Positions 5,223 through 30,436 of a DNA stretch of 64,000 nt are shown here, one piece after another; the stretch's first letter is position 1; each line of letters begins with the position of its first letter. The position numbers were made by a program, and so were the translations under genes. The notes under the pieces were generated by a model. The model was given only the letters and a program-made list of their open reading frames with translations, did no database searches and was not told where the DNA came from. Origin of the DNA: Candidatus Omnitrophota bacterium. Its GTDB lineage: Bacteria; Omnitrophota; Gorgyraeia; Gygaellales; Profunditerraquicolaceae. The stretch lies in assembly GCA_041662125.1 (NCBI GenBank), contig JBAZTA010000001.1, positions 195,118 to 259,117 of the forward strand, in the 5' to 3' direction.

Positions 5223-5227
5223 ATACT

Positions 5228-6835
5228 CTACGCCAGGCTCTTTATGATGTTGCGGGCAAACGGCACCTTTTCCTGCAAAAACAGGATATCATTTACGCCG
5301 AGCAATTTCCCAGAGCGTATCCCCGCAATATAAACACACGTAAAAATCGTTCCCCGTGCCAAGAGGATGAAAAAAAGCAAATACCGCGACGGGACAGGAA
5401 CAATATATCTCAGGAGCATATCAAAAGCATAGACGAACGCAACAGCAAGGACACTCACGAACAAATACGGGATTATAATTTGAAAAAATCTTTTTACAGG
5501 GATTCCCAGCACTTTATGCAGAATTACCAGAAAATAGACCGTCCCGGCATTTGTAGCTACCATCGTACCCCAGGCAACACCGTAAAACCCCATCATTTTT
5601 ATAAACACAATGCTTAAGATAACATTTAACACGACAACAATAATCGAGCCCCGCGCCATTAATTGCGGTTTATCGATCGCCAGGCAGGTTGAGGAAGCGA
5701 CTTGAGCAATAACATTGATCATGGAACTTAAAGCCAGTATCTGAATGATAAACGCTGATTTTTCATACCCCTGCCCCATCCACACCGACATAATATGAAA
5801 CGCCGATATGATCACAAATATAAATAAGGGCACCATAAAAAATGCTAGGTATTTGGTCGTCATTAAATATGCTTCAATAAGTTTAACGCGCTCACCCCTG
5901 GCTTCGATCTCGGCAAAAGCGGGGATAAGAGCTGAAACAAGCATGTACGAGAACCCCATGACTGCCCCGACAATACCGCTGCCTAACTGATAATACGTAA
6001 CCAGTCCTAACGACAGGAAATACCCGATCAAGATCTTATCTGTTTGCGTAGTGATGACTCCGGCAACCTTGGTCATCTGCACCCGGAAACCAAAATTAAA
6101 TAACATTCCCAACATCCTGCGGTTCACAAAACGCACTCCTAAGCGTAACGAAGGCACCAAGCGAAAAGCTACCGCGATATTGACAATAGTTGCGATACAA
6201 AAAAGGATGATATTATTCACCATTAAACCGGCAAGCCCATAGCCTAAAGACAAAAACATAAGAATTCCCGTAACATTGATCAATGACATCCCTATTGCTA
6301 TTTTATTAGTCACATCCATTCTCTGTATTCCGCTCTGGAGAGAAGAAAATGAGCTCAGTGCATTATTACAGGTAAACAGAACGATCCCCGCTGACACAAC
6401 AAACTTTGTTTCGCCATATAACGCAGCAGAGACCTTAAACAAAACGAGGAGTTGGTCAATAAAAATGAAGGTTACCCCTATTACGCCGATGCCGAAAAAA
6501 GAATAAAAAACTAGCCCCGTATTGATCACTTGGTTTATCTTATCGTATTCTTTTCTGGTATAATATTCCGATAAATATTTTACAAACGAGGAACCGACGC
6601 CAAAATCAAACAAACTAAAATAACCGGTAATAACACCAATAATTGCCCAGACCCCAAAGCGTTCTATACCAATACATTTAATAATATACGGTGTTAAGAA
6701 TACACCGACGATCAAAATCCAGAAACGCCCCAAAAAATTATACAGGGTATTACGGACTATCTTGCCTGAGACGCCCCCTCTGAGCTCTGAGTGCTCATCC
6801 ATGCTGATACGCCTCCGCCGCATTTTCTTCAGCAA
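5228..6835 (-). CDS. Wzx-type oligosaccharide flippase (polysaccharide biosynthesis protein family)
   Basis: 535 aa polytopic membrane protein. N-terminal LYNFLGRFWILIVGVFLTPYII motif typical of the Wzx/MOP family. True start may be the internal Met (MDEHSEL, about 6802), which would reduce the overlap with the next gene. Confidence 0.7.
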   Translation of the reverse strand: MLKKMRRRRISMDEHSELRGGVSGKIVRNTLYNFLGRFWILIVGVFLTPYIIKCIGIERFGVWAIIGVITGYFSLFDFGVGSSFVKYLSEYYTRKEYDKINQVINTGLVFYSFFGIGVIGVTFIFIDQLLVLFKVSAALYGETKFVVSAGIVLFTCNNALSSFSSLQSGIQRMDVTNKIAIGMSLINVTGILMFLSLGYGLAGLMVNNIILFCIATIVNIAVAFRLVPSLRLGVRFVNRRMLGMLFNFGFRVQMTKVAGVITTQTDKILIGYFLSLGLVTYYQLGSGIVGAVMGFSYMLVSALIPAFAEIEARGERVKLIEAYLMTTKYLAFFMVPLFIFVIISAFHIMSVWMGQGYEKSAFIIQILALSSMINVIAQVASSTCLAIDKPQLMARGSIIVVVLNVILSIVFIKMMGFYGVAWGTMVATNAGTVYFLVILHKVLGIPVKRFFQIIIPYLFVSVLAVAFVYAFDMLLRYIVPVPSRYLLFFILLARGTIFTCVYIAGIRSGKLLGVNDILFLQEKVPFARNIIKSLA

Positions 6836-8171
6836 GTATATCCGGCAGGATTGCTACCAAAGCAGTCAAAAACCAAAACGGTTCCATGATGCGGATAATA
6901 ATGAACGTTGCTGAAGAGAAAGAATGGAATAAAAGCCCGACTAACCCCGCTAAATACCCTAAACAGAGCCCTTGAATAAAATTATTCTCACTTGCCTGAA
7001 CATACGATGTCCACGCCACCCGGAAGATCATCACGATAAGGACCAAAAACGCTGAAAAACCGATAAGGCCGGTTTCACTCAAAACCCTGGTATATTGATT
7101 ATCAACAACACTGCCTATCGGTATACCATAGCCAAGTAACGGTTTCTCTTGTACCCGCTGAAAAGCGGTACTCCAGGCGTCAATACGCGCCGCCGCAGAC
7201 TCTGAAACATCAATACGCTTGCCCATCATCTTATAGGAACGTTCAGGCGCAAACGTTTCATTGACACGCTTATATACCTTCTGGGGAAAAATAAACGGCG
7301 AGAGCAAGATCAAAGAAACAAAAACAGTGACTAACTGCGCTTTATATTTCTTACTCAACACGATGATAACCAGGAACATCGGGAAAAAAGCCAGCCACCC
7401 GCCGCGGGAAAGAGTCAGGATAAACACTAACCCGATAAACCCCAGGAAGAAGATCAGGGCTAAACGCTTCATTCTTGTTTCAGGATATACGATGAATCCC
7501 AGCGTTAAAGAAATTATCAAAAGTAAATACCCTGCAAACGTATTTGGTTCCCCCGCTTTACCCTCAAAAGGCGCTGATAACCGGCCTCCCCCGGGTATTT
7601 GGACCCAAGCGTATACACAAGCAAAAAAACAAGTCAGGAGAATAAAAAAAATAAAAATCTTAGCCTGTTTTATGGAACGCAGATTATTAACAACCATAAA
7701 ATAGAGCAGAAAATATTCTACATATTTCAAAAGAAAGAAAAATGAATGTTTTGCATTCAAATACCCTTGCAATATCCCTAATAGTGTGGAAAAAAAACAA
7801 ATAAAAGTATAAAACAGTATCGGCCGGTTTAACGTAGTGACTTTCAATAAGCCGAATTCTTTATTGACTGCCATTTTCGCAAGCCAGCCGAAGAAAATAA
7901 CGAACAAAAAAATATCATCAACACGCACCATCACAGCCCTGCCGGAGACGCCTCCTCCCGCTTCTAATTCCGGAGAGAGGAGCATGGAAAGAATAAGTAT
8001 GACTAATGCGAAATGAGTGTTCGCAAAAGAAATAGCGAAGATTACCGAAGCAAAAATAAAAACAAACGCGTACTGGACAGGAAAGCGGAAAACCACAAAA
8101 AGAAGGGATAAGAATATCGCGAAGAGGAAAACAACAACATGGACCGTCTGTGCCTTTTGATTATGAATCAT
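6795..8171 (-). CDS. O-antigen ligase/polymerase (Wzy-like) membrane protein
   Basis: 458 aa with about 10-12 TM helices and a large periplasmic loop. Called from its position in the EPS cluster. Confidence 0.5.
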   Translation of the reverse strand: MIHNQKAQTVHVVVFLFAIFLSLLFVVFRFPVQYAFVFIFASVIFAISFANTHFALVILILSMLLSPELEAGGGVSGRAVMVRVDDIFLFVIFFGWLAKMAVNKEFGLLKVTTLNRPILFYTFICFFSTLLGILQGYLNAKHSFFFLLKYVEYFLLYFMVVNNLRSIKQAKIFIFFILLTCFFACVYAWVQIPGGGRLSAPFEGKAGEPNTFAGYLLLIISLTLGFIVYPETRMKRLALIFFLGFIGLVFILTLSRGGWLAFFPMFLVIIVLSKKYKAQLVTVFVSLILLSPFIFPQKVYKRVNETFAPERSYKMMGKRIDVSESAAARIDAWSTAFQRVQEKPLLGYGIPIGSVVDNQYTRVLSETGLIGFSAFLVLIVMIFRVAWTSYVQASENNFIQGLCLGYLAGLVGLLFHSFSSATFIIIRIMEPFWFLTALVAILPDILAEENAAEAYQHG

Positions 8172-8214
8172 ACATGTCCAAATGGAGTCAATACTACCAA
8201 ATTACATTTTTCTC

Positions 8215-8255
8215 TAAAAAAGAAAAGAGGGACATTCCGCCCCTTTCGTAATTTC
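8215..8255 (-). terminator. Putative intrinsic terminator after the Wzc gene
   Basis: On the minus strand: AAAGGGGcggaatgtCCCCTcTTT stem-loop followed by TCTTTTTTAG. Confidence 0.35.
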
Positions 8256-8288
8256 TAAAAAAACCAAAACTTTGCGCACGAGCACGAT

Positions 8289-10223
8289 CTATCCTTCTGC
8301 CTCCTTCTTTGCCGATTTATATGGTTTCGGAGGCTCTTCTTTTCCGTAATAGCGGTACTTGTGCGAATAATACGGATATGTCGCGATCGCTTCAGTCTGA
8401 GATTTGGTATGGTTTAAAACTACTCCCGCAATTTTTGCGCCAACGGACTCTAACTGTCCCTTTGCCCGGATAAGGGCCTCTCGGCTTGTCCTGCCGATTT
8501 CATAAACAATAACCACACAATCAATCTTGGGCGCAAGAAGGCTTGCATCAGTAACGGGCAGGATTGGCGGAGCGTCAAAAATGATCACATCAAATCTCAC
8601 TTTTAATTTATCGATAACAGTCGCTAATTCTTTAGATTCTATAAGTTCAGGAGGATTAAACGGCAGGCGGCCGGAAGTAAGCAGCCATATATTCTCAAGG
8701 CCGGGTGTCATCCTGATCTCTTCAAAATTCATCTCCCCCATCATAAGGTCAGTAACATTTTTCAATGCGTCTTCAAGGGTTACCGTCCCCGTCAAAAGTT
8801 CATTGAGCCCAGGCTCTTTCTTTATTCCGAATGTTTTTGCTATTACAGGCCTCCTCAGGTCAGCAGAAACTAAGAGTGTCTTTAACCCGGCCTGCGCCAT
8901 AACAATCGAAAGATTGACTGCAATACTGCTCTTACCTTCACGCGGACCGGAGCTGGTGACAAGAATCGACTTCTTGGAAGGATTGAGTTTTAAGTTTGTA
9001 TGAATATTACGGTAGGCTTCGGTTGTCGGAGATTTCGGGTTATAATGAGAAAATAAACGGATCAGCCTTTCCTGTTCCTCTGTTTTCTGCGCCGGAGAAA
9101 ACTTTGCCCTGATGCGGTCGATGATCCCATACCCCTGATCGCTTTCATTGATCACTGAAGGAATAACGCCTAAAACCGGCAGCTTAACCACATTTTCTAC
9201 ATCTTCGATAGTACCGATGGAAGTATCTAAGGTTTCAAGCACAAACGCCAGCGCTACCCCCAGGATCAGCCCCATGAACGCCCCTACCACAACCCCCATT
9301 TTCTCGTTGCCGGAAACAGGCGCTGAAGGAAGTACTGCGGGGTTGACGACTGAAATATCCCCGACCTTTTGGGCCTCAGTAATACGGGCCTCCTCAAGCT
9401 TTTCTTTAAGCATAGCGTAGAGCTTTTTATTAACATCGATCTCCCTGGTTAAACGGGTATATTCAAGTTCCTGCCCGGAAAAACCTTTGACCTGAGATTC
9501 AATTTGTTCGATCTGTTCACGGGCCTGTATAACACGGGGATGTTTTTCCGTATATTTTTGCATTAAATCCGCCAGTTGAAATTCCAACTCAAGCAATTTC
9601 TGCTGCATAGGTTCAGCTAATTTAATGTTTTTCACCTCATCGCCAAAAATCCGCAATTTATCTTCTGCCTGGCGTAAACGGTCTTCCAAAGACGCTAACT
9701 GTTCTTCAATGAACTGACGAGTATGACGCGCCTGTTTGGCTTTATCAACCAGGTTTTCTTCAATATAGACATCTGCAACGCTGTTTGCCAAATCCATAGC
9801 TTCCTTGGCATTGTCAGCGGTAGCGACAATACGGATCATATTGGTATTGCCGACTTTTTCCGAATCGATGCTCCCTTGCAAATTGCTCACCACGCTGTTA
9901 ACCAATTCTACAGGAGACTTCTCATCGATCAAACCGCGCAGCAATGCGACTTTCTTCATAACCGGATAGCCTTTAATAAATTTGGTTTCCGATTCCATCA
10001 CATCGCCAGGGCTATACATGACCATTTCAGTCAAAAGGCCGGCGATGGTTTTTCGTTCTTCTATTTTGATAGTAGCGCTTGCTTGATAGACAGGCTGTTT
10101 TTTGGAAAGATAAAAAAGACTGCCGATAAAAACGGCAAAAAAGGTAAAAAGAATGACTAATTTTCTTTTATGAAAGATGCGGACATAATCTCTTAAATTA
10201 AGTTCATACTGCGGCAAAATCAC
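8289..10223 (-). CDS. Polysaccharide co-polymerase / tyrosine autokinase (Wzc/EpsB-like)
   Basis: 644 aa. N-terminal Wzz-like TM domain, coiled coil, Walker A SSGPREGKSS, Walker B VIIFDAPP, C-terminal Tyr-rich tail YPYYSHKYRYYG. GAGGAGG RBS. Confidence 0.8.
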   Translation of the reverse strand: MILPQYELNLRDYVRIFHKRKLVILFTFFAVFIGSLFYLSKKQPVYQASATIKIEERKTIAGLLTEMVMYSPGDVMESETKFIKGYPVMKKVALLRGLIDEKSPVELVNSVVSNLQGSIDSEKVGNTNMIRIVATADNAKEAMDLANSVADVYIEENLVDKAKQARHTRQFIEEQLASLEDRLRQAEDKLRIFGDEVKNIKLAEPMQQKLLELEFQLADLMQKYTEKHPRVIQAREQIEQIESQVKGFSGQELEYTRLTREIDVNKKLYAMLKEKLEEARITEAQKVGDISVVNPAVLPSAPVSGNEKMGVVVGAFMGLILGVALAFVLETLDTSIGTIEDVENVVKLPVLGVIPSVINESDQGYGIIDRIRAKFSPAQKTEEQERLIRLFSHYNPKSPTTEAYRNIHTNLKLNPSKKSILVTSSGPREGKSSIAVNLSIVMAQAGLKTLLVSADLRRPVIAKTFGIKKEPGLNELLTGTVTLEDALKNVTDLMMGEMNFEEIRMTPGLENIWLLTSGRLPFNPPELIESKELATVIDKLKVRFDVIIFDAPPILPVTDASLLAPKIDCVVIVYEIGRTSREALIRAKGQLESVGAKIAGVVLNHTKSQTEAIATYPYYSHKYRYYGKEEPPKPYKSAKKEAEG

Positions 10224-10241
10224 CTCCTCGTATAATGTTCT

Positions 10242-10270
10242 AACATATCATAGAATCAACAGGTTATCAA
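10242..10270 (-). promoter_or_regulatory. Candidate sigma70 promoter for the Wzc operon
   Basis: Minus strand: TTGATA, 17-nt spacer, TATGTT, about 20 nt upstream of the GAGGAGG RBS. Confidence 0.3.
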
Positions 10271-10359
10271 GTGAATAATGCGTAAGAAGAACGCACACCT
10301 GCCGCAGAAAGCGGCATACCCAGCACTCCGATATGCTGGGGTGCAATAAGTCCGGGGAC

Positions 10360-10388
10360 TTGACTGCCTATTTCTTTTCTGTTAGACT
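10360..10388 (+). promoter_or_regulatory. Candidate sigma70 promoter for the ABC exporter genes
   Basis: TTGACT, 17-nt spacer, TAGACT, about 35 nt upstream of the ATG at 10424. Confidence 0.4.
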
Positions 10389-10423
10389 AAAAACAAATAA
10401 AACCCTATACTTAAAACAATACT

Positions 10424-11209
10424 ATGAATCCTATCTTAGAAGTTAACGCAATAACCAAGAATTTCTTTTCTCCCCCTTCCTTCAAACAACTCTTCAGAGG
10501 CAACAAAAAAAAAGAAACTCCGGTACGAGCGCTGGAAAACATTTCATTTTCTCTTAAACCTGGAGAAATCATCTCCCTGCTTGGACCCAATGGGGCGGGA
10601 AAAACGACACTTCTTAAGATTATCGTAAAGCTTCTACTTCCAGACCAAGGCTCAATTATTGTAAACGGTTATACCAGTGAGGTTAACGATGAGAAAATAA
10701 AATCCACCTTGGGTATAGCAACTTCTGCTGAACGCAGCTTTTACGCCAGGTTAAGCGGAAGGCAAAACCTGGAATTCTTTGCCGCGCTGTATGGACTAAA
10801 CAAAAAACAAACTAAAAACAAGATCCAGGAACTGGGCGGATTCTTCAATGCGCATTACCTCGATAAACGCTTTGATACATATTCCGCAGGCATGCAACAA
10901 ACCTTAGGGCTCATACGAGGGCTTATGCATGAACCAAAATTACTCCTGCTTGATGAGCCCACAAAATCACTCGATTACATAAGCACGCAACACCTGCATG
11001 GGTTTATCAGAGATTTATCAAAACAATACGGCACGGCCATTATCATGACAACACATCGTATGGATGAAGCGGCACATTTCGCGGGGCTCATCATGATACT
11101 TGATAAAGGCAGGCTTCGCGCGTTCGGGAGCCGGGATGAGATCAGAAAACAAATAGCTCAACCTCATGCCACCTTAGAGGAAATATTTACCCGGCTGACG
11201 ACCCTATGA
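10424..11209 (+). CDS. ABC transporter ATP-binding protein (Wzt-like, ABC-2 exporter)
   Basis: 261 aa. Walker A GPNGAGKTT, signature YSAGMQQ, Walker B LLLLDEPT. Confidence 0.8.
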   Translation: MNPILEVNAITKNFFSPPSFKQLFRGNKKKETPVRALENISFSLKPGEIISLLGPNGAGKTTLLKIIVKLLLPDQGSIIVNGYTSEVNDEKIKSTLGIATSAERSFYARLSGRQNLEFFAALYGLNKKQTKNKIQELGGFFNAHYLDKRFDTYSAGMQQTLGLIRGLMHEPKLLLLDEPTKSLDYISTQHLHGFIRDLSKQYGTAIIMTTHRMDEAAHFAGLIMILDKGRLRAFGSRDEIRKQIAQPHATLEEIFTRLTTL

Positions 11210-12012
11210 CCAATAAAATCATCGCCTTTTTAAAAAAAGACTTTCTCATCGAATCAAGTTACAAGTTATCATTTATTTTTAACGCGTTAAGCGTTCTGGC
11301 CAGTACCCTGGCTTATTTCTTTATCGATAAATTATTCGGGCATCTGATCGTCGGGCATTTGCAGGAATTTGGCGTGACCTATTTCTCGTATGTGCTTTTA
11401 GGCATGGCTACTTTTAGCTATGTCGGAGTCGGCATAGGATCATTTTCAGCGCGGCTGCACTCTGAACAGGTCCAGGGGACATTGGAAGCAATCCTTTCGA
11501 CCCCAACGTCGATCCCTACCCTCTTATATTCACTGGCTAACTAGAACCTCTGCCTGGCGACATTCGATATGCTGATCTATATTATTTTAGGGGTCTATTT
11601 GTTTCATATAGACCTTTCCCATATTAATATCCTCTCAACCGGGATAATCTTTATACTTACCATCGCCACTTTCAGCAGCCTCGGCATTATTTCTGCGAGT
11701 TTCATCATGGTCTTTAAACGGGGCAATCCTATCAGTTGGCTGGCCAGCAACCTTGAAGGGCTTATTGGAGGGGTTTATTTCCCGATAACGGTTTTGCCGG
11801 CATGGGGGCAATTCCTGGCAAAACTTTTTCCCATTACCTATGCGATCAGGGCGCTGCAATTGTCAGTCTATCAGGGCTACAGTCCCCAACAGTTAAAAAA
11901 AGAGATCCTCGCCCTCTTCCTCTTTACCCTTATCCTGCTCCCCTTGAGCCTTTCCTTATTCAAACACAGCATTAAAATAGCGAAGAAAAACGGCAGCCTC
12001 GCAAAATATTAA
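11206..12012 (+). pseudogene. ABC-2 type transporter permease (Wzm-like) interrupted by an in-frame TAG at 11542-11544
   Basis: ORFs 11206-11544 and 11569-12012 are in the same frame (…LYSLAN*NLCLATFDMLIYII…) and together give a canonical ~265-aa six-TM ABC-2 permease. Start overlaps the ATPase stop (ATGA). Confidence 0.6.
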
Positions 12013-12600: not shown

Positions 12601-12876
12601 TTAAACGGGAATTACCAGGCCTTTGCTCACTAGCTCTTCAATAAACTCCACAGCATCCTTTTGCAGGCTGCTTTCTTCGACTTCAAATTCATCATGAATA
12701 ATCACGAGGATCTCCCGGCAGGTTTTAGTGCCGTCAATAAGTTCCCAAATTCTCGTACCTGCCGCATTCAAAGGATAGATCAATCCGTCTTTCGGATCAA
12801 CCAACAATGCCTCTTCTTCAATCGTCCTCCAGGCAATACTCTGGTTACGCTTTATTTTCTTATCCAATAATTCCAT
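12601..12876 (-). CDS. PqqD-family RiPP recognition element (RRE) protein, stand-alone
   Basis: Matches K. pneumoniae PqqD from memory: W..(hydrophobic)..P..G....LN..(A/G)..I.EL.DG..........EF.........V.EF…L…KG motifs line up (IAWRT…YPLNAAGTRIWELIDGTKT…DAVEFIEELVSKGLV). Start assigned to the internal ATG at 12876, which has a GGAGG RBS; the ORF-track start at 12933 would overlap the kinase gene by 74 nt. Confidence 0.75.
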   Translation of the reverse strand: MELLDKKIKRNQSIAWRTIEEEALLVDPKDGLIYPLNAAGTRIWELIDGTKTCREILVIIHDEFEVEESSLQKDAVEFIEELVSKGLVIPV

Positions 12877-13669
12877 CAATATACCTCCAGATAGCTTCAT
12901 CCTGTTTAAAATAAAGTTGGTAACAGGGCACATTGTGCGTCAGATCCGCCAAAGAGACTAATAAAGTATTAACAATAGCCCTATCAGGAATATTGACCAA
13001 AATATTATGCAGTAATTCCTTAACGGCATCAGCCTGTTTAAGGCGGCGATGCGTAAACAATCTATCTTTAGAAATCAAGAAGATCGCTTTAAGCGGCGCT
13101 CCCTTGTTTTCATCAGGTAAACCAAAATCACCAAAGAAAGGCGTCGCATACGCATAGAATTTGCCTTTACGCTTAAGGATCGCCGCTGTTTCATCTGTCA
13201 AAACAATACTGCCTTGAGACAGCCGCGCAATAGTAGTTTTACCGCTCTCTGAGGGCCCAAAGAACACATACGAAAAACCACGGTGTAAAACTACACTTGC
13301 GTGCAGCAGGAATCCGCTTTTTTTCAATAAAACAACAAAACACAAAAACCGCAGCACATCAACAATCCCGACATCGGGCACTGCTGAAACACTCACCTTT
13401 TTCTTGCAAAAATCAACCTTCAGGTCAAAGGTCGCTGTTTTAAATTTCGATAAACTCTTTTGAAAGCAGTTGCAAGAACTATACCGCAGATCCTTAGGTC
13501 CTTTTCTTTTGTTTAATTGCAATGATACCAGATAATCCGGCCTATCCTGAGTGACAAAAAGGCAATAATTTTTCTTCAACCAAGTGATCTGCCGCAACTC
13601 TGCGCATCCAACTTCAAAAACAATGTCTACAAGTTTAATTTTTATCCGGTGGGCCATAATTCTTATCAA
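12860..13669 (-). CDS. HprK-related kinase (HPr kinase/phosphorylase C-terminal-domain-like), RiPP-tailoring-kinase type
   Basis: 269 aa. LHASVVLHRGFSYVFFGPSESGKTTIA is the HprK P-loop (G.SG.GKS/T) context. Start overlaps the upstream peptidase stop (ATGA). Confidence 0.7.
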   Translation of the reverse strand: MIRIMAHRIKIKLVDIVFEVGCAELRQITWLKKNYCLFVTQDRPDYLVSLQLNKRKGPKDLRYSSCNCFQKSLSKFKTATFDLKVDFCKKKVSVSAVPDVGIVDVLRFLCFVVLLKKSGFLLHASVVLHRGFSYVFFGPSESGKTTIARLSQGSIVLTDETAAILKRKGKFYAYATPFFGDFGLPDENKGAPLKAIFLISKDRLFTHRRLKQADAVKELLHNILVNIPDRAIVNTLLVSLADLTHNVPCYQLYFKQDEAIWRYIDGIIG

Positions 13670-14112
13670 AATTTTTTAAGCAGATATCTAAGCCGCGCTA
13701 TGCAGGGAAGAAAAAACGCTAAACACAACCCAAAGATCCGGGCATTCCAGGTATCAAGACAAACCACGCCTTTGTCTTTCTTAACCAAAGTTACCTTGCC
13801 AAGCAATTCTTTTGAGCCGATAAAAGTTTCAAGTGAAAAACCGGTATCAGCTTTCGCCATGACAAGCAATTCGCCGTTTCTACGCGCTTTCTTGATGACT
13901 CTATGGCTTATGAGACTATTCTGCCTCTTAAAAACAACTATATCACCATAATGCAGCTGGCTGAGCAAACAAGGAGAAATCGAGACAAGATCATTTTCTT
14001 TTAAAACCGGCACCATACTCTTACCGGTAACCCGCGCCCAACTTCCTTGATTCTTTTGCAACGCTTCGCTAAACAAAGTAAGTGAGCACAAAGAAAAATC
14101 ATGCTCAGTCAT
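13666..14112 (-). CDS. S24/S26-family (LexA/signal-peptidase-like) serine peptidase; candidate leader peptidase
   Basis: 148 aa. TGKSMVPVLKENDLV…YGDIVVFKR matches the G-x-S-M-x-P…GD…K Ser/Lys-dyad motif. ATG overlaps the TAA of the upstream peptide ORF (TAATG). Confidence 0.5.
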   Translation of the reverse strand: MTEHDFSLCSLTLFSEALQKNQGSWARVTGKSMVPVLKENDLVSISPCLLSQLHYGDIVVFKRQNSLISHRVIKKARRNGELLVMAKADTGFSLETFIGSKELLGKVTLVKKDKGVVCLDTWNARIFGLCLAFFLPCIARLRYLLKKF

Positions 14113-14270
14113 TATGAAGAATTAGTAGTACGCTGGCCCTTGCCTGTGCCAGTACGGCTGGTTTGAGAACACGTTACTGCAGTTGCCCTGCAACAAAGCG
14201 CAGCCCCTACTTCCATCATTTTAACTGCCTTTAACTGCGGTTTCTCATATGGTTTCTTTTTTTTGTTCAT
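14112..14270 (-). CDS. Candidate RiPP precursor peptide (52 aa), not in ORF track
   Basis: Minus strand AGGGAGGTGCC-ATG…TAA translates to MNKKKKPYEKPQLKAVKMMEVGAALCCRATAVTCSQTSRTGTGKGQRTTNSS. Basic leader with a Y-x-x-P-x-L motif; Cys/Ser/Thr-rich C-terminal half ending in Ser-Ser. 10 nt after the rSAM stop; stop overlaps the peptidase start. Confidence 0.5.
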   Translation of the reverse strand: MNKKKKPYEKPQLKAVKMMEVGAALCCRATAVTCSQTSRTGTGKGQRTTNSS

Positions 14271-14280
14271 GGCACCTCCC

Positions 14281-15354
14281 TTAACTTATCCTGTCATTAT
14301 ACAACTCATAATCAACTTTTGAAATACAACGCAGGGTATCATAACAAGCTTTTACATCTTTTTTCTCTAAATATGCTAACCCTAAGCACTTCTTGCAAAA
14401 ACGGATATACCGGCAATCCAGGCAATCCGGCATATCAGCGTAGGTGCGCAAATTATCCAATTCTTTGCGTAATGCTGACGGCGATTGCCAGATCTCTCGA
14501 AAACTCATCTTTCTGATATTTCCCATGGGGATCAACAGTTGAATACAGGGATACACATCCCCGTACGGAGAAATATAACAACCGATCACTCCTGTTCCGC
14601 ATAAGAGTTTTTCAAGCGGCTTATCCCAATAACCATGCTTCTTTTCAGAAAGAGGGATATTCGCGCGGGCAATCATTGAACGGATCTGGCCCTCATTGAT
14701 CTGATATTGTTTAGGCTCAGGCGAACCGTCATTTTTACAGGAAAGCTCCATGGTAAAACGATACGCCTGCGCTCCTATCTGATAACAGAATTCTTCAATT
14801 TCTTTTTCTTGATGCACATTACCATTCATTATAGCTGATTTCAATACTACCTTCAAATGATTATCTTTCAAGGATTTCACCGCTCTGCAGAGCTCTTCAA
14901 ACGATCCCGGCCGCCGCGTAATAGCATCATGCACTGCTGCAGTTGAACCATAAACGCTCATTTCAACACATAAAGGAGAAAGCTCTGCAATACGCCTGGC
15001 GCAGGTATCATCGATCAAGGTAGCGTTGGTGAAAATATTCAGCGCGAAATTCTTTTTTCTGGCATAGCGGGCAATCTTAAAAAAATCCCGGCGCAAGAAA
15101 ACTTCCCCTCCGGAAAGGGTAAGATATAATGATCCGACCTCAGATAACTGGTCTAAGAGAGAGAATATTTCACCGGTAGATAATTCTTTTTGGTTAGAAG
15201 GAAAGCTTTCTGACAAACCTTGACAATAACAGTGGATACAATCCTGATTACACCGATAGGTCAGGTCAAGATGGGCCCAAAGAGGTATTTTTCGCTCTTC
15301 TACCTTAGCTAAGATGGTATTAAATTGATATTCTGCCTTGTGGCACGATTGCAT
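14281..15354 (-). CDS. Radical SAM / SPASM-domain peptide-modifying enzyme
   Basis: 357 aa. CNQDCIHCY is the CxxxCxxC radical SAM motif. C-terminal SPASM-type Cys cluster: CGTGVIGCYISPYGDVYPC…CLDCRYIRFCKKC. Confidence 0.8.
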   Translation of the reverse strand: MQSCHKAEYQFNTILAKVEERKIPLWAHLDLTYRCNQDCIHCYCQGLSESFPSNQKELSTGEIFSLLDQLSEVGSLYLTLSGGEVFLRRDFFKIARYARKKNFALNIFTNATLIDDTCARRIAELSPLCVEMSVYGSTAAVHDAITRRPGSFEELCRAVKSLKDNHLKVVLKSAIMNGNVHQEKEIEEFCYQIGAQAYRFTMELSCKNDGSPEPKQYQINEGQIRSMIARANIPLSEKKHGYWDKPLEKLLCGTGVIGCYISPYGDVYPCIQLLIPMGNIRKMSFREIWQSPSALRKELDNLRTYADMPDCLDCRYIRFCKKCLGLAYLEKKDVKACYDTLRCISKVDYELYNDRIS

Positions 15355-15372: not shown

Positions 15373-18300
15373 TTACTTCTTAATGACCATAGCCGGGTCG
15401 CCAAAAAGATTATAGGTTTCTAAGATCGCCCTGATATTAGGATTATTCTTTTCGTACACATATTTCTTTGCCAACTGTATTGCTTCACCAAAACTCATAT
15501 TCATATTATTGTTATCAAATACCGCCTGATAGAAACCTTTCGCGAAGAATTCCTGCTCTTCAGGAGAACTCACGATACTGGGAAATACCCCGCCTGCCGC
15601 TCCTTTATCAGGAGTTAAAAGCAATACTTCACCCACTGAATCAAGAATCCTTTGCGGATATATAAAATAACCGTTAGCGCAGGTCAAAGTAATAAAGAAT
15701 GGATATTTTCCCGTATTGGTAAGGCGCCCCACATCCGCATTGGTAAATACACGGCTGGTCGACCATAAACTTATTCCTCCGTGTCCCGTATACGTGACAA
15801 AAGAAACTCCCCGGTTAATTTCCTCAAGGATCCCCTGATGCACGGCCGATGCGCTATCATTATCGAGGTATAACTTGACCTTTTGATCAGGAGCAGGGAA
15901 TTCCAGCGCCAGCCTATCAGAAAGCGACGAATAGGCTTTATGTTCATCTCCATCAGCTACGAGAAGATGGTTTCCGGTAGAATACCCTGCTGTTTCATAA
16001 TTAATGATCTTCTGTATGACTGCCTGCAGTTGCACTGTGTCGTTAACCGGGAGTCGGCCGATCATCATTTTTGGCAGAGCTGAATCTTCAAATGTAGCAA
16101 ACCAGCCATCTGAAGGCCCTTCTCCAAAACGGCCTGCATATACCAGGTATGCCGGCACCAGATTTTTAGCGCCTAATTGATACTGATCTTTATAATCAAA
16201 CGTACCGTCCCCGACAAACAACACATATTTTGGCTTCGGCAGCTGCCAATTCAGATAGGCATACTTCAAGAAATCTTTAATAGCAACCGGCGAGAAAACC
16301 CCGTAATTAAACGCATCATATATCTCATCGACCGTTACAACTTTGACCGAGTACCCTTGAGATGCCCTATACTCTACTAAAGGTTTAATACCCTCGAGGA
16401 AATCGCTATGCGTAATGACAATATAATCCGCCTGGTTAGTTTTCTTTATGATATCAGAAGGCCCAGATTGCGTGATCTCAACCGGCGAGCGCACCCCTTT
16501 ATCGGATACCGCCACGTACATCCGCTTATTCTTGTCACGATTATTAAATCGCGCGCTGTATGTTAACCCGTTATTTTCAACGCTGACATTGGCAAGCCGC
16601 ACCGGCCGGTTTTCTCTCGTAATATCAAACACATTAATTTTATCTGAGCTAAACCCAGTAATATAATACGTCGAGGCTTGAGCTTTTCCTTCAAACACAA
16701 GCGCATCATTTTGAGCAACGAAATTACGCGGGTATTGCAGCTTAACCCAATCCAAAAGCACTAATTGAGGAAGCAGGCCACCGTCGTCAGGAACTTCGAT
16801 CCTGAGGATATTCGAGCCTTCGGATAAAACAGTCGCATCAAATTCCCCCTGACAGACATAATACGTATCTCCATTCCACTGCCCAGCAGCAACGGCAACT
16901 CCATTAATATACACTTTTATTTTTTGCAGGTTGTTGCCCGCCATTAATATACTTGAGAACCCCTGCAGCCCTATTTGAATACGCGCGCTGCCTCCGGAAA
17001 CATTTAATTGGTCAACAGAAAGCTCTAATTCATAGTCCATAGGAGAAAATAATTCATCCGCCCAAAACCAGTGCTCTTCGCCGTTAATTTCAGGATAATA
17101 ACTGCTGTTATCTTCCAGCTTTACCTCGCTCATATAATAACCTTGCACAGTTCCGGCAGAAGACGCAAGCCTATTTTCTATTCTTTCTCCATTTTTATTT
17201 ATCATAAGCCAATAAATATTGCGTTTGGCATAACGGGTATCAATTGCCTTGGCGTAAAACTCGATATAATCATCCCCGGCAATGACCGACACCACTTTAC
17301 CCTGATTAAGCAGTTTGATATTCGCAGGGTCAAACAGGCTTGCATCAAAGCCTGCCGTTTGCAGATCAAGTTTAGTGAGCCGGTACATCCCATCCTGCTC
17401 AACTGCCAGTTTGAACACATCTTTCTGATTTTGCACCCTTTGCAGGCGAACCGCGGGAACATTCAGGGCATCCTTAAGGGTATTACGCTCTTTAAGTTTC
17501 TTGCCGTTACGCAATAGTATACTCTCTTCTTTATCCAGCCAGGAATTATCTCCGACTCCGACACTTACCGGGCCGACATACGTTTCTCCTGTAGGCCGGT
17601 TAAGAACTCCCAAGATATAATAATAATTCACATTGGGTTCGGTATCAATCACTTCGTAATTCTTGCCGCTGATCGGGCCGCCGCAGGAAGGAATGAATTT
17701 ACCTACCGGCACATAACTTTCTTTGTTATCCGGGGTCAAGCTGCGGTATACCTGGAAGCCTTTAACGGCAATTTCTGATTCGCTGGTAAAACGCACAGAA
17801 ATATTATTATCTCTGTTGTAATTCGCCGCTAATGAAACGATCTTTGCCGCGGTAGGTTCGCTAATAGCGATATAACGCAGGCTCATAAGAGCAAAGTCCC
17901 AATCCCTGGTTGCTGCGGCAGTCGCGGTAGATGTAGAAGTACCCAGCCTTAAATTTCCCAGGTTATTCGTCGTATCGATATAATCAGGCAGATTATTCTG
18001 ATACGTAGTAGTATAAAACGTTAACGTTGTAGTCGCGTTAGTCGAACCGGAACTGATCCAGCCTCCGGTCGTATTATTAATTCCGGTATAATCTAGCAAA
18101 CCTAATGTCACGGTATTGGTTGCCAGATTGCTCCTAAACCTGTTCGCAAGCCTGATACCGGTGATTTTTGAACCATATGGGATCGTTAAAGGGAATGAAA
18201 GATTACTTGATGAGCAATAGTTCGTTGCCCATGTCCCTGCCCGGTCTAAAGCATAAAACGTTGCAGCGCTCGTCGTAACCGTAGTATGCTGCCAGGTGGA

Positions 18301-20931
18301 ATCAGCGGAGCTGGTATCCATAGTCATGGTATTAGCTGCGGTAGTGCCTCCAGCCTCAGTTCCGAAGCTCGTTTCCGATAAAGAAACATTATTATTAACT
18401 GAACCTACAATGATATACATTAAATCAAGGGAATGATTATAACTTAACGCGGGAGCATTCGTCAGAATACCGACGCGCATTTCCCCTTCAGAAGACATAT
18501 AATCCGATAACGTAACATTTGACTTGGCGAAATAATAGGTTGCTTCCGTGGTATTTGAAAGGGTAGTAGCGTTCAAATTCTCCCAAAGTGTCGTGTTAAA
18601 ATTATAAATCTGCACATTATAGGTCAATGCCACATTAGAAACCAATCCTTCATATGCGACCATGACCGTATTAGCCCCGGTATAAGCGGCAACATTCATA
18701 AATGACAAATAATACTGTAATGCCGCCCCTGCAACATTAGGAACAGTAATACGGTTATTATCAGTCGTAAAGGTATAATCATAGGTATTGGTTTCTGTGC
18801 CTCCGGCAACTTTCGTATATCCGGCTGGTTCATAATAAGGATCAATAGCTACTTCTAATACCATTCTATCCATATAATGGATATACGAATTTGTTGTATA
18901 GCTGGAATATATCCGCAGCATCACCCTGTTATTATTTGCGGTATCTACAAAGTTTGACAGAGGCGTGGATACAGGACTGTTGCCTGACTGCCAATATCCG
19001 TCATAGATCTCCCAAACCCGGTCAGCATCAGCGGTATTGGTTAATGTCGTATTTCGCTCATTTAACGGCCTCCAGGTAGCATTCAACACATCATAGATCT
19101 GCACCTGATAGGTCAAAGCGGCATTAGATACATAGCCGCCTTCATAAATAATTAATTTATTAGCTGCCTTTAAATCAACTCCTTCAATATAGATCCGTTT
19201 ATCTAACCCATCACTTCCTCCCGTAACACTACTGGTTGCCCAATATACCGTATCATTAGCTAATGTCCCTTTCCATCCTGCAGAGGTAGCAGAAAGCGCT
19301 GCTTCTGTGCCCATGGCAAGACTAAATCCTGTTGGGCTATAACCGGCTTGTATCGAAGGACGGGTCGGAACTTCAACCCAGCGGATACTCATCATAGCAA
19401 AATCCCAGTCCCGGGTCACGGTCGCGGTCGCGGTAGAAGCGGAAGTTCGCAGCCTCAAATTACCCAGATCATTCGTACTATCGATAAAATCAGGACAGTT
19501 ATTCTGATAGGTCGTAGTATAAAATGTTATGGTTGTCGTAAGATTCGTTGAGCCTGAATCAACCCAGCCTCCTGTCGCGGCATTAATCCCTGAATAATCT
19601 TTTAAACTTAAGGCAACGGTATTTGCGGTTGAGTTACTTCTGAACCTGTTCACCATCCTGATACCGGTGACCGCGCAGCCATCCGGCACGGTGATCGGAA
19701 ATGAAAGATTTGACGAAGCAGAATAATTAGTCCCCCAGGTTCCTGCCCTATCGGAAGTATAAAACGTAGCAGCGCTCGTCGCAACCGTATCATGCTGCCA
19801 GGTAGAATTAGCGGAGCTACTGTCCATATCCCTGGTATTAGCAACAGAGGAGCCCACGGTTTCTGTGCCAAAAGATGTTTCAGACAAGCCCGCGTCGGTA
19901 TTGACGGAACCGACAATAATATACAATGAATCAATATTATGGTTACGGGTTGCCGCAGGGGCATTGGTCAAGAAACCTATTCGAGCCTCTCCATCCTGTA
20001 TATAATCAGCCAGATCGACATTTGACTTCGCGAAATAATAGGTGGTTTCCGTAGTATTAGAAAGCGTGGTGCCGGAAAGATTTTCCCAGTTTGAAGTAGT
20101 AAAATTATATATTTGTACATCATAGGTTAAAGCAACGTTAGAAACAGCGCCTTCATACGTCACCTCTATAGCGTTAGCACCGGGATAAGTCTTTACATTG
20201 TTAAAAGAGAAATAATATTGCGACGTAGCTGCTACATTACTAGCGACCGTTAAACGCGTATTATCCGAAGTAAAGGTATAATCATAGGTATTAGTAACTG
20301 CGCCGCCTGAAACTTTAGTAAAACCCGCCGCCTCATAATACGGGTCAACGGCTACTTCTAACAACATACGCTCTACATAGTGAGTACGGGCAACCGAAAC
20401 ATATGTCGAATAAATACGCAAGGTTACCCGCTGATTGGCATCCTGGGTCACAAAATTGGATAAGGGAGTTGAAATGGGGATGTTGCCTGCCTGCCAATAT
20501 CCATCATATATTTCATAGGTATAATTGGTATCAGCGGTATTGGCTAAGGTAACATTGCGTTCATTAAGCGTCCGCCAAGTGGCATTAACCACATCATAGA
20601 TCTCCACCAGATACACTAATGCCGCGTTAGAACTATACCCGCTATAACTAATAATGAATTTATTAGCGCCTTTTATATCCACACCGTCAATATAAATTTC
20701 CTTATCTAAGCCAACGCCTCCGGCTATAAGGTTGCCCGTCGCCCAATAAACGTTCTCATTTGCCAAAGCCCCTTTCCATCCCGAAGAGGTGGCAGAAAGC
20801 GCTACTTCTGTACCAACAACCAAATTATAACCGGTAGGAGTATAGCCGGAGTTAGCCCATACCTTATAAAAAACACACAATACTGAAAAACAGATGAAGA
20901 ATAATAAAAAAACAAGATTTATTTTTCTCAT
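15373..20931 (-). CDS. Giant secreted protein: signal peptide, two ~500-aa tandem repeat domains, pro-region, C-terminal peptidase C25 (gingipain-like) catalytic domain
   Basis: 1852 aa. N-terminal signal peptide MRKINLVFLLFFICFSVLCVFYKVWA. C-terminal YTGHGGISLWSTS…PFFITLTCANGYF matches the gingipain His/Cys dyad context (Kgp NYAGHGSETAWGTS…FIFDVACVNGDF). AAGGAG RBS. Confidence 0.8.
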   Translation of the reverse strand: MRKINLVFLLFFICFSVLCVFYKVWANSGYTPTGYNLVVGTEVALSATSSGWKGALANENVYWATGNLIAGGVGLDKEIYIDGVDIKGANKFIISYSGYSSNAALVYLVEIYDVVNATWRTLNERNVTLANTADTNYTYEIYDGYWQAGNIPISTPLSNFVTQDANQRVTLRIYSTYVSVARTHYVERMLLEVAVDPYYEAAGFTKVSGGAVTNTYDYTFTSDNTRLTVASNVAATSQYYFSFNNVKTYPGANAIEVTYEGAVSNVALTYDVQIYNFTTSNWENLSGTTLSNTTETTYYFAKSNVDLADYIQDGEARIGFLTNAPAATRNHNIDSLYIIVGSVNTDAGLSETSFGTETVGSSVANTRDMDSSSANSTWQHDTVATSAATFYTSDRAGTWGTNYSASSNLSFPITVPDGCAVTGIRMVNRFRSNSTANTVALSLKDYSGINAATGGWVDSGSTNLTTTITFYTTTYQNNCPDFIDSTNDLGNLRLRTSASTATATVTRDWDFAMMSIRWVEVPTRPSIQAGYSPTGFSLAMGTEAALSATSAGWKGTLANDTVYWATSSVTGGSDGLDKRIYIEGVDLKAANKLIIYEGGYVSNAALTYQVQIYDVLNATWRPLNERNTTLTNTADADRVWEIYDGYWQSGNSPVSTPLSNFVDTANNNRVMLRIYSSYTTNSYIHYMDRMVLEVAIDPYYEPAGYTKVAGGTETNTYDYTFTTDNNRITVPNVAGAALQYYLSFMNVAAYTGANTVMVAYEGLVSNVALTYNVQIYNFNTTLWENLNATTLSNTTEATYYFAKSNVTLSDYMSSEGEMRVGILTNAPALSYNHSLDLMYIIVGSVNNNVSLSETSFGTEAGGTTAANTMTMDTSSADSTWQHTTVTTSAATFYALDRAGTWATNYCSSSNLSFPLTIPYGSKITGIRLANRFRSNLATNTVTLGLLDYTGINNTTGGWISSGSTNATTTLTFYTTTYQNNLPDYIDTTNNLGNLRLGTSTSTATAAATRDWDFALMSLRYIAISEPTAAKIVSLAANYNRDNNISVRFTSESEIAVKGFQVYRSLTPDNKESYVPVGKFIPSCGGPISGKNYEVIDTEPNVNYYYILGVLNRPTGETYVGPVSVGVGDNSWLDKEESILLRNGKKLKERNTLKDALNVPAVRLQRVQNQKDVFKLAVEQDGMYRLTKLDLQTAGFDASLFDPANIKLLNQGKVVSVIAGDDYIEFYAKAIDTRYAKRNIYWLMINKNGERIENRLASSAGTVQGYYMSEVKLEDNSSYYPEINGEEHWFWADELFSPMDYELELSVDQLNVSGGSARIQIGLQGFSSILMAGNNLQKIKVYINGVAVAAGQWNGDTYYVCQGEFDATVLSEGSNILRIEVPDDGGLLPQLVLLDWVKLQYPRNFVAQNDALVFEGKAQASTYYITGFSSDKINVFDITRENRPVRLANVSVENNGLTYSARFNNRDKNKRMYVAVSDKGVRSPVEITQSGPSDIIKKTNQADYIVITHSDFLEGIKPLVEYRASQGYSVKVVTVDEIYDAFNYGVFSPVAIKDFLKYAYLNWQLPKPKYVLFVGDGTFDYKDQYQLGAKNLVPAYLVYAGRFGEGPSDGWFATFEDSALPKMMIGRLPVNDTVQLQAVIQKIINYETAGYSTGNHLLVADGDEHKAYSSLSDRLALEFPAPDQKVKLYLDNDSASAVHQGILEEINRGVSFVTYTGHGGISLWSTSRVFTNADVGRLTNTGKYPFFITLTCANGYFIYPQRILDSVGEVLLLTPDKGAAGGVFPSIVSSPEEQEFFAKGFYQAVFDNNNMNMSFGEAIQLAKKYVYEKNNPNIRAILETYNLFGDPAMVIKK
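17854..20850 (-). repeat. Tandem duplication, 2 x ~1.5 kb, encoding two ~500-aa paralogous domains inside the giant C25 gene
   Basis: Protein residues 28-528 and 529-1026 align end to end at about 65-70% identity (SGYTPTGYNLVVGTEVALSATSSGWKG… / AGYSPTGFSLAMGTEAALSATSAGWKG…). DNA blocks are visibly similar about 1.5 kb apart. Confidence 0.7.
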
Positions 20932-21169: not shown

Positions 21170-22231
21170 TTAAAAAGACTTAGCGGCTTTCCAGCGCACA
21201 CCCGCAGAAATAGCCTTTATTTTGTTAAAAAATCCTTTCTGTATCGCTAAGTATAAAAGAACACATGCGTCTTCACGGGGAAAATCGTTATTTTTCGCAT
21301 AAGTAAAGAAATATTTCTCTAAAAGAGACATTCCCTGCGGCCGTAATGTCGAAAGAAAATCCTCAGGCACAGGAGTAGAAAACAATTCTTTGATCAACGA
21401 AACTCCCATATATATAGGTAAAACAAGCCCCCATTGACGGCCCAAAGCAGCAATTTCCTGCCAATCAAGTGAATCTCGATACGCCAACACAAATGCATGT
21501 AAATCATAAAGGATATTGAGCCGTGCAAATCCATGGCGCATCCCATGTTCACACAACGCGGTAAACATCTGTTCTGGTGGCATCATAAACAAATTATCTT
21601 TATTTTTATCTATTCGAACTCCTGCATCCCAGATTTCTTCAACATCGACTCCTGAGGCTTGCTTGCGTAATAAAGGCATCGAAACATTAGATAAACCCCA
21701 ATGCAGATGCAGCGGCATAAAGACCGATTGGTCCTTATCGTGTTTTAAGAACATTGCCGCGGTCGATTCGCCTGATGGTGCATTTTTTTCCCGCGTATCA
21801 AAATTTCTATATCCCAGCGATCCAATAAGATGGCGTGCTTTCTCCACATTGGCCGCTTTTACAAGAAAATCAACATCTTCCATGCGCCTTACCCCAATGC
21901 GAGCCTGATAAACTACATGTAAAAAAAACATCCCCTTAAGCACTATGATCTCTATCCCAGCGGCCGCAAAGGCCGTGCGCAACTTTTCAAATTCCTCTAA
22001 CAAGAGGGTATTACGAAAAAGATTCATTCTATACTTCTCTTGGAGCTGTTGGTAAACCTCATCAGGAATACTTAAATCTTTTTGCCGGTCTCTGACAATA
22101 TGAAATAAAAGGGCTGATACTTTCGAACGAGCAGCAATACTCACTAACCGCCCCCAATCGCATTTCTTCCCGTTATAAGGAAGAAATTTTCCATTCAATA
22201 ACGAAACTAAATATGTTTTTACCGGTGTCAT
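21170..22231 (-). CDS. Nucleotidyltransferase-family protein, PF14907/NTP_transf_5-like
   Basis: 353 aa. IIVLKGMFFLHVVY…RRMEDVDFLVKAANVEKARHLIGSLGY resembles the LKG…D(I/V)D(L/F)LV core of the uncharacterised nucleotidyltransferase family that co-occurs with HprK-like kinases in lasso/RiPP clusters. Confidence 0.45.
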   Translation of the reverse strand: MTPVKTYLVSLLNGKFLPYNGKKCDWGRLVSIAARSKVSALLFHIVRDRQKDLSIPDEVYQQLQEKYRMNLFRNTLLLEEFEKLRTAFAAAGIEIIVLKGMFFLHVVYQARIGVRRMEDVDFLVKAANVEKARHLIGSLGYRNFDTREKNAPSGESTAAMFLKHDKDQSVFMPLHLHWGLSNVSMPLLRKQASGVDVEEIWDAGVRIDKNKDNLFMMPPEQMFTALCEHGMRHGFARLNILYDLHAFVLAYRDSLDWQEIAALGRQWGLVLPIYMGVSLIKELFSTPVPEDFLSTLRPQGMSLLEKYFFTYAKNNDFPREDACVLLYLAIQKGFFNKIKAISAGVRWKAAKSF

Positions 22232-30435: not shown

Positions 30436-30436
30436 A

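Follow-up and report, generated by a model that had tools for sequence, protein, structure and literature searches.

What a small open reading frame (ORF) of 52 codons is doing between a radical SAM/SPASM (rSAM/SPASM) gene and a peptidase gene is the question raised by a stretch of 64,000 nucleotides from a metagenome-assembled genome (MAG) of Candidatus Omnitrophota bacterium (assembly GCA_041662125.1, contig JBAZTA010000001.1, positions 195,118 to 259,117; this whole stretch is called the window, and its own numbering is used below). The answer we reached, with a probability of roughly 80%, is that the ORF is the gene for the precursor of a peptide made on the ribosome and then modified after translation (RiPP), with its maturation genes around it in one minus-strand operon. 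The gene (14112..14270, minus strand) encodes MNKKKKPYEKPQLKAVKMMEVGAALCCRATAVTCSQTSRTGTGKGQRTTNSS followed by a stop codon and is present in a single copy, since a search of all window ORFs of at least 30 amino acids with the profile of the peptide family returned this ORF as the one match. The stop codon of the rSAM gene (TAA, 14283..14281) lies 10 nt before the precursor ATG (14270..14268). Directly after this stop codon stands the Shine-Dalgarno sequence GGGAGG (14280..14275, minus strand), which a 4-nt spacer, TGCC, separates from the ATG. At the other end the precursor stop TAA (14114..14112) has one base in common with the peptidase ATG (14112..14110), forming a TAATG overlap. The placement between the two genes, the GGGAGG and the tight junctions at both ends had been described in the original prediction made for this DNA, and the sequence confirms them. 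The same prediction called the ORF unannotated, which is not correct, as NCBI already lists it as hypothetical protein WDL87_00930 of the Candidatus Omnitrophota bacterium MAG, on a contig of 646 kb. No Pfam or NCBIfam model matches the peptide, and a PDB search with the peptide profile gave no match.

An open frame of 52 codons is not rare and by itself is weak evidence of a gene (about 8% chance expectation under uniform codons), and the stretch might be a non-coding spacer or a structured RNA in which the ORF occurs by chance. Codon alignments from ten loci argue strongly otherwise. Synonymous divergence (pS) is about 0.75 or more, i.e. saturated, versus a non-synonymous divergence (pN) of 0.17-0.3 for the closer pairs, and the differences between the window and the related locus L008 are distributed as 12/7/29 over the three codon positions, with an excess at third positions. 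Arginine codons swap between CGT and AGA/AGG among the homologues. Saturation at synonymous positions together with little non-synonymous change means that the protein is what selection maintains; the length and the frame are also kept, although synonymous sites are saturated relative to the window gene. Conservation at the amino-acid and not the nucleotide level, which had been named beforehand as decisive, was thereby borne out (pS about 0.75, pN about 0.2). The Shine-Dalgarno is conserved too: AAGGAGGG is kept at the equivalent place in two other loci, L004 and L006. A structured RNA or an attenuator was ruled out by the lack of a match to the precursor stretch in Rfam at E up to 1 and by predicted RNA folding that is no better than that of shuffled sequence (z = +0.79). 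Promoter and terminator scans remained at background level. The comparative evidence thus shows that the 52 codons make up a genuine gene, which is strongly conserved and translated as protein, and a chance ORF is hardly conceivable.

Homologues were collected by a HMMER scan of 1.84 billion representative proteins, by a word-index search and by a second profile search. The word-index search found two close homologues of the 52-aa peptide, a three-sequence profile gave 22 small proteins in the HMMER scan with E-values down to 7e-18, and the second profile search gave 54; both searches pooled amount to 69 distinct sequences of 50-79 aa, 52 of which are 52-57 aa long. With profile E-values of 1e-16 to 1e-18 against 1.8 billion proteins such conservation is not due to chance. 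A metagenome scan with the three-sequence peptide alignment and N-terminal patterns found one locus, which was known already. The cassette occurs in Omnitrophota and Rokubacteria and in MAGs to which NCBI gives the name 'Candidatus Acidoferrum'. In an alignment of 27 sequences Y8, P11, C26, C34 and the C-terminal Ser are invariant and K5, E20 and C27 nearly so.

The conserved positions fall into four elements. The leader motif Y8-E-K-P11-Q-L13 (14232..14249, minus strand) is present as originally reported and is the predicted binding element for a RiPP recognition element (RRE); Y-x-x-P-x-[LVIF] is found in all 69 family members. It is followed by M19-E20-V21 (14208..14216, minus strand; positions Y+11 to Y+13), where Y+11 is F, L, M or I in all 69 and Y+12 is E in 51; by analogy with linear polyphosphorylated peptides (LPPs, see below), and by that analogy only, this is a candidate site of both recognition and cleavage for a SipW-like peptidase. 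The third element is the core block C26-C27-R28...C34 (14169..14195, minus strand), the predicted radical SAM site, whose C26 and C34 are invariant in the alignment. Across the family 51 of 69 sequences have their first Cys at Y+18, 53 have a spacing of 8 between first and last Cys, and 55 have three Cys. The last is the codon of the C-terminal Ser52 (14115..14117, minus strand), the predicted phosphorylation site, with a terminal Ser in 67 of 69. The Ser-Ser ending to which attention had been drawn is indeed there in the window peptide, but as the penultimate residue is usually Thr in the family, the conserved feature is the terminal Ser and not Ser-Ser. A divergent subgroup of 13 precursors (P0176-P0188), one of them in a MAG named Candidatus Acidoferrum by NCBI, has a long N-terminal extension, the sequence R-V-F-E-T-x-A-L-x-C-G-K and a shorter tail that also ends in Ser.

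The peptide does not travel alone. Its cassette consists of an rSAM/SPASM enzyme, the precursor, a SipW-like peptidase, a ScmC-type kinase, a PqqD RRE and an NTP_transf_5 protein, and the association was examined from both directions. From enzyme to peptide, the anchor was the ScmC-like protein, which has 205 homologues, mostly from Omnitrophota; seven loci with DNA (L008-L014) were chosen blind to the peptide, and when all their ORFs of 30 aa or more were searched with the profile, each of the seven yielded one family member and no more. A genome scan with the rSAM protein gave only three rSAM/SPASM paralogues, all distant (23-26% identity) and none in a cassette of this kind; these became negative controls, and the three control loci with their unrelated rSAM/SPASM genes contained zero matches to the peptide profile. 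At a further locus, for which annotation was available, a 61-aa gene is called right after the rSAM gene. From peptide to enzyme, L015 (a Rokubacteria MAG) and L016 (a sediment contig) contain, in this order, S24-like, ScmC, PqqD, rSAM, peptide and NTP_transf_5 genes. The expectation set beforehand, that small ORFs beside homologous cassettes would share a YxxPxL-type leader and a fixed Cys spacing, therefore came true, and the comparison of gene content shows that the precursor gene co-varies with a fixed enzyme set of rSAM/SPASM, SipW-like peptidase, ScmC-type kinase, PqqD RRE and NTP_transf_5. Identity of the peptide to that of the window exceeds identity of ScmC (73% versus 52% in L008, 65% versus 45% in L009).

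The order of these genes is not rigid. L011 and L012 are rearranged (peptidase, ScmC, PqqD, rSAM, peptide), and the peptide still follows rSAM. In L011 the precursor homologue (8099-8260) was missed by the gene caller of the JGI contig; the NTP_transf_5 call that overlaps it (start 8176) probably begins too early. The peptide gene of L013 (4630-4803) lies upstream of ScmC and not after rSAM, and an S24-like gene is not among the genes listed for that locus. A 55-aa ORF in L013 (4975-5142), considered as a second precursor copy, proved unrelated. In L010 a 123-aa gene of the 23S_rRNA_IVP family (4976-5347) stands between the rSAM and precursor genes and breaks the usual tight linkage. Some Omnitrophota have the peptidase and ScmC fused, in two lineages (P0072, P0077), for example as a 420-aa protein in L012 (7001-8263). 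Also in L012, NTP_transf_5 is fused to a methyltransferase (9755-11485).

The rSAM/SPASM enzyme (14281..15354, minus strand, 357 aa) matches Pfam Radical_SAM (4e-21) and SPASM (6.5e-12); residues 35-42 form the CX3CX2C motif, and the Cys pattern of SPASM is complete. AlbA, SkfB and StsB align with the enzyme only from about their position 100 onward, which means that it lacks their fused N-terminal RRE; with PqqE the alignment begins at position 4. Lacking an RRE of its own, it resembles PqqE, which relies on a separate PqqD. The closest solved structure is SkfB (E=1e-17), which forms thioethers. None of the 11 loci covering the cassette lacks the rSAM gene, and in most of them the peptide gene lies directly downstream of it.

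On the other side of the precursor is a protease of 148 aa similar to SipW/archaeal-type signal peptidases (13666..14112, minus strand; Peptidase_S24), the predicted leader peptidase. Its best NCBIfam match is the archaeal-type signal peptidase I model TIGR02228 (2.8e-11), and S32, H70 and D89, which are kept in 10 cassette homologues, correspond to S29, H68 and D93 of LppS, the LPP leader peptidase. Next comes the P-loop kinase-like protein of the ScmC family (12860..13669, minus strand; 269 aa in the longest ORF, 265 aa at NCBI; PF27840, TIGR04249-like), which has the Walker A motif GPSESGKTT and invariant H123, D159 and T-P-F positions and whose homologues carry the precomputed Pfam assignment PF27840 'ScmC'. 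A PDB search with the single sequence of this protein found nothing meaningful, and its profile matched only P-loop regions of PEPCK. As these searches were insufficient, structure prediction and a fold search were used: the AlphaFold2 model has a pLDDT of 91.7, and Foldseek matched it to PEPCK at 3e-9 and to HprK/P at 1e-5 to 1e-4. Members of the kinase-like family match TIGR04249 (27 of 30), TIGR04352 (26 of 30) and TIGR04355 (23 of 30), in every case below the cut-offs.

The discrete PqqD-family RRE (12601..12933, minus strand; Pfam PqqD 5.9e-16) has a longest ORF of 110 aa that begins with the ATG at 12933 and so shares 74 nt (12860-12933) with the 3' end of the ScmC-like gene. Its true start is probably internal, at M12 or M20, because homologues are 89-104 aa long. 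Among PDB matches, the lasso RRE TbiB1 (2e-7), LppB (9x8z_B, 0.0024) and PbaB1 (9x90) are the relevant ones; the top matches, the designed propellers 'Cake' and 'Scone', are repeat artefacts and were disregarded. TbiB1 and LppB as the best solved relatives, together with up to 31% identity to LPP RREs, support the link that had been drawn between the leader and a PqqD-type RRE. The second predicted tailoring enzyme, a nucleotidyltransferase-like NTP_transf_5 protein of 353 aa (21170..22231, minus strand; PF14907 2.5e-46), is encoded farther upstream and was found in every locus in which the whole cassette is covered (the truncated L006 and L008 being excluded). Divergent from the cassette are an ABC-2 ATPase (10424-11209, plus strand) and an ABC-2 permease (11206-12012, plus strand), candidate parts of an exporter; the same divergent pair lies beside the cassette in L004, L008, L009, L012 and L014. 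The permease of the window appears as two ORFs of 112 aa and 147 aa because of an in-frame TAG (11542-11544).

From gene content and conserved residues it is most likely that this neighbouring enzyme set modifies the peptide, and the following course of events can be proposed. The Lys-rich leader would bind the discrete PqqD RRE via Y8-x-x-P11-x-L13, as in lasso peptides and LPPs, and the RRE would hand the peptide to the rSAM/SPASM enzyme, which would modify the core at the invariant Cys. A ruler-like presentation of the core would fit here, because the distance from Y to Cys is fixed at 18 residues; the invariant Cys suggest that the products are most likely Cys-derived thioether crosslinks. 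The ScmC-type kinase would phosphorylate a Ser, possibly with several phosphates. Ser52 is the most likely target, as the C-terminal Ser is the only invariant hydroxyl residue and also the site used by the paeninodin and pseudomycoidin kinases. The NTP_transf_5 enzyme may then decorate the phosphate (the decoration being a hexose in pseudomycoidin), the SipW-like Ser-His-Asp peptidase would take off the leader near M19-E20-V21, and the ABC-2 transporter would export the product. Three cleavage positions are candidates: after V21 by analogy with cleavage after F-E-T in LPPs, after A23 by LPP spacing (Y-16), and after A24 by lasso spacing (Y-17). Cleavage after G-A-A, as first guessed, is thus one of the three, but the LPP analogy favours V21|G22 instead.

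The closest known relatives of this system are the LPPs of Bacillota, whose clusters lie in capsule loci (Popov et al., Nat Commun 2026, PMC13381572). According to that study the clusters encode the precursor LppA, the RRE LppB, the SipW-like LppS, the HprK-like LppK, the NTP_transf_5 protein LppN and an MsbA-like exporter, and the precursors carry the motif YxxPxVLxHQxIxFETxxS, in which YxxP is required for RRE binding, a mode of binding known also from lasso peptides. LppS (catalytic S29, H68, D93) cuts after F-E-T only when LppB is present, F-3, E-2 and T-1 of LppA are needed for cleavage after T-1, and LppK puts several phosphates on Ser3 of the core; LPPs and paeninodins are described as restricted to Bacillota (all PMC13381572). 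In its supplementary tables the 'HprK kinase' group consists of TIGR04249, TIGR04352, TIGR04355 and TIGR00679, plus a single AAA_29 match, the NTP transferase is NTP_transf_5 and the peptidase is TIGR02228 (PMC13381572).

Several parts of the window cassette resemble LPP proteins. Aligned over its full length with a profile made from 10 LppS-family sequences (Supplementary Data 1 of PMC13381572), the window peptidase reaches 67.4 bits, more than the 43.5 bits that it obtains with the generic TIGR02228. The RRE reaches 31% identity and 43.9 bits (BLASTP) with LPP RREs, compared with about 29 bits with RREs of paeninodin-type lasso clusters. The kinase family matches, below cut-offs, three of the models listed there for the LPP 'HprK kinase' (TIGR04249, TIGR04352 and TIGR04355), the comparison being made via the models alone, and NTP_transf_5 is common to the window cassette, LppN and PsmN-type proteins. 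Both leaders start Lys-rich, go on to Y-x-x-P-x-[LV] and further along carry hydrophobic-Glu-[T/A/V], a triplet that reads F-E-T in LPPs and also in the Acidobacteria-like subgroup of the present family. Both systems lie in polysaccharide loci and both are without a lasso cyclase. There are also clear differences. The window cassette has an rSAM/SPASM gene, whereas a Radical_SAM or SPASM entry was not found in the LPP domain tables, so far as these are accessible. The H-Q motif is missing in the present family, whose core is short (about 28-31 aa) and conserved, with C-C-[RK]...C and a terminal Ser, while LPP cores are highly variable. The adjacent transporter is of the ABC-2 type (ABC_tran and ABC2_membrane) and not MsbA-like, and the hosts are outside Bacillota. 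Judging from the genes, we regard the cassette as LPP-like and extended by a radical SAM step, with a conserved core that contains Cys and ends in Ser.

Resemblance to two other groups is more distant. With SynChlorMet (ScmC-ScmF; TIGR04248-04251) and GeoRSP the cassette shares the combination of a ScmC-like protein, a PqqD-like protein and rSAM/SPASM, and SynChlorMet models are the best or near-best NCBIfam matches of the kinase-like protein and the RRE and, less closely, match the rSAM enzyme. The scores stay far from the cut-offs (24.1 bits against 125 for ScmC, 37.5 against 100 for ScmD, 103.7 against 400 for ScmE and 63.6 against 400 for ScmF), and membership in SynChlorMet or GeoRSP was rejected for this reason; besides, the window cassette has one rSAM enzyme and not two, and has in addition the SipW-like peptidase and NTP_transf_5. 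To our knowledge, no precursor has been identified for the SynChlorMet cassette as described in TIGRFAMs. Sactipeptides and ranthipeptides (SkfA/SkfB, subtilosin/AlbA) have in common with the window system an rSAM/SPASM enzyme with a complete SPASM Cys pattern and a Cys core after an RRE-bound leader. They differ in that the maturase of the window has no fused RRE, the leader is of the lasso/LPP type, and a kinase, a nucleotidyltransferase and a signal-peptidase-like protease are added. The sactipeptide models StsB, AlbA and SkfB were matched far below cut-offs, and thioether formation is a prediction here. In the literature that could be searched we found no paper that joins SPASM, a HprK-type kinase and PqqD, and nothing specific on SynChlorMet/ScmC or on radical SAM RiPPs of Omnitrophota.

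Because of the YxxPxL motif and of the HprK-like and nucleotidyltransferase genes the peptide might be taken for a lasso precursor. HprK-like kinases of lasso clusters phosphorylate the C-terminal Ser, which in paeninodin and pseudomycoidin is then glycosylated (PMC6993621, PMC8498205), PsmN decorating the phosphate of pseudomycoidin with hexose (PMC6993621). The window system shares with these phosphorylated lasso peptides (PadeK/PsmK, PsmN) a YxxP-type leader, a discrete PqqD RRE, a kinase of the HprK superfamily, an NTP_transf_5-like enzyme and the terminal Ser; a cut after A24 would give Y-17, P-14 and L-12, fitting the lasso leader rule, and the best solved relative of the RRE is the lasso RRE TbiB1. 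Against this stands the lack of a macrolactam cyclase and a B2 cysteine protease: neither turned up in the operon, in the ten window ORFs scanned with Pfam (535-1025 aa long) or among the genes of 11 related loci, with the sole exception of a weak Asn_synthase match on a QueC gene in L013. Asp and Glu are both missing from the window core, whether this is counted from G22 or from L25 up to S52, and therefore no isopeptide ring is possible (some other family members do have an Asp or Glu in the core). Nor is the lasso Thr at -2 there, this position being Ala, Gly or Glu in the window according to the cleavage site, and Ala with the cut after A24. The predicted leader removal is by a serine peptidase of the SipW type, and an rSAM enzyme is present. 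A lasso peptide was ruled out on the lack of a cyclase and a B2 protease in these genes and loci and on the window core without an acidic residue, and that the peptide is a lasso precursor has practically no chance of being correct. Of the lasso-type leader that had been proposed, the YxxPxL motif and the PqqD-type RRE remain, but the lasso system does not.

A RiPP precursor modified by the whole enzyme set also has to be weighed against two nearer explanations and against several observations that do not sit well with it. The family does not have the LPP leader consensus and no LPP precursor gets more than 10 bits with its profile, so that the likeness of the two is at the level of motifs only; the hydrophobic-Glu pair lies 2 residues nearer to YxxP than in LPPs, and the phosphorylated residue of LPPs is Ser3 of the core and not the C-terminus, the equivalent position of the present peptide not being Ser. 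The kinase-like protein resembles HprK/P at the level of the fold only, with PEPCK scoring better. In the divergent subgroup of 13, two Cys (C-G-K) take the place of C-C-[RK]. The in-frame TAG in the permease is at the position of a Trp in L008 (SLSLWNLIF there, SLAN*NLCL in the window) and is probably either a nonsense mutation of TGG to TAG or an error of sequencing. All NCBIfam matches of the rSAM enzyme are far below cut-offs, and the best include, alongside sactipeptide maturases, heme b synthase AhbD, MftC and NirJ2. All of this weighs against our reading, and the last point in particular suits the idea that the peptide is an LPP-type substrate only, i.e. RRE-bound, phosphorylated and cleaved, with rSAM acting elsewhere, for instance on a cofactor or on a polysaccharide-pathway sugar, and with another role, such as disulfides or metal binding, for the conserved Cys. 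The LPP system functions without rSAM, and in L013 the peptide gene is not beside the rSAM gene. We nevertheless consider this improbable, because the rSAM gene is constant in the covering loci and the peptide gene is directly downstream of it even in L011, L012, L015 and L016, where the order of genes is rearranged; the precursor is translationally coupled to rSAM in the window; an rSAM enzyme without its own RRE stands beside a discrete PqqD, as in PqqE/PqqD; and the Cys residues are at a fixed distance from the RRE motif. Somewhat more improbable still is that the ORF product is conserved along with the cassette without being a modified substrate, acting for instance as a regulator, in immunity or as a structural partner. 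The basic character of the peptide and the low complexity of its C-terminal half would suit such a role, but the peptide carries a leader motif recognised by RREs of the same clade, its invariant Y, P, two Cys and terminal Ser suit an RRE, an rSAM enzyme and a Ser kinase, and the loci contain no other conserved ORF that is a candidate substrate.

If the peptide is a RiPP precursor modified in the proposed way, the product would bear crosslinks plus phosphate, the crosslinks being due to the added rSAM enzyme. It is a tentative and on the whole unlikely proposal that the peptide is the founding member of a new RiPP class, combining an rSAM-crosslinked Cys block, leader removal of the signal-peptidase type and phosphorylation or phosphoglycosylation of the C-terminal Ser. 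ScmC/PqqD/rSAM-SPASM cassettes are widespread in uncultured bacteria, with enzyme models that are known and a precursor that had not been assigned, and the peptide provides a concrete substrate that can be tested. The combined logic of SipW-like peptidase, RRE, kinase and NTP transferase appears to reach beyond Bacillota, to Omnitrophota, Rokubacteria and Acidobacteria-type MAGs. At least one family member (that of L011) was overlooked by gene callers, and the alignment can be used as a search profile with Y..P.[LVIF], hydrophobic-Glu at Y+11/Y+12, Cys at Y+18 and a terminal Ser. The result is a lead for genome mining that is directly testable, and in principle it is not surprising.

The surroundings of the cassette are also informative. 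Upstream of the rSAM gene and in the same orientation are genes for a C25/PorU-like protein (15373-20931, minus strand, 1852 aa), the NTP_transf_5 protein, a polysaccharide export protein and then a 651-aa protein. The other flank has the divergent ABC-2 transporter, a Wzz/GNVR chain-length regulator, a Wzy_C protein and a flippase. With such polysaccharide genes as neighbours the cassette sits within an exopolysaccharide locus, to which its biological role is probably linked. A polysaccharide-locus setting in both LPPs and the present family, from unrelated phyla, strengthens by analogy the idea of a role in capsule or biofilm. In the furthest version of the unlikely new-class proposal given above, NTP_transf_5 would join the phosphorylated C-terminus to exopolysaccharide sugars, and the peptide would be a primer, cap or anchor of a surface polysaccharide and not a compound secreted in free form. 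C25 and polysaccharide genes are frequent and not invariant neighbours of the cassette; the C25/PorU-like protein, considered as a part of the core cassette, was rejected, as it is present upstream in the window, L004, L008, L010 and L011 but absent beside the cassette in L009 and L012-L016. The window copy of this protein has a tandem duplication in its N-terminal half (roughly 17700-20850), consisting of two units of about 530 aa that begin with YTPTGYNLVVGTEVALSATSSGWKG and YSPTGFSLAMGTEAALSATSAGWKG. Farther out, on the upstream side of the polysaccharide locus, a gene for a 1025-aa TPR protein stands between two genes for secretins of 597 aa and 605 aa (28642-35545, minus strand).

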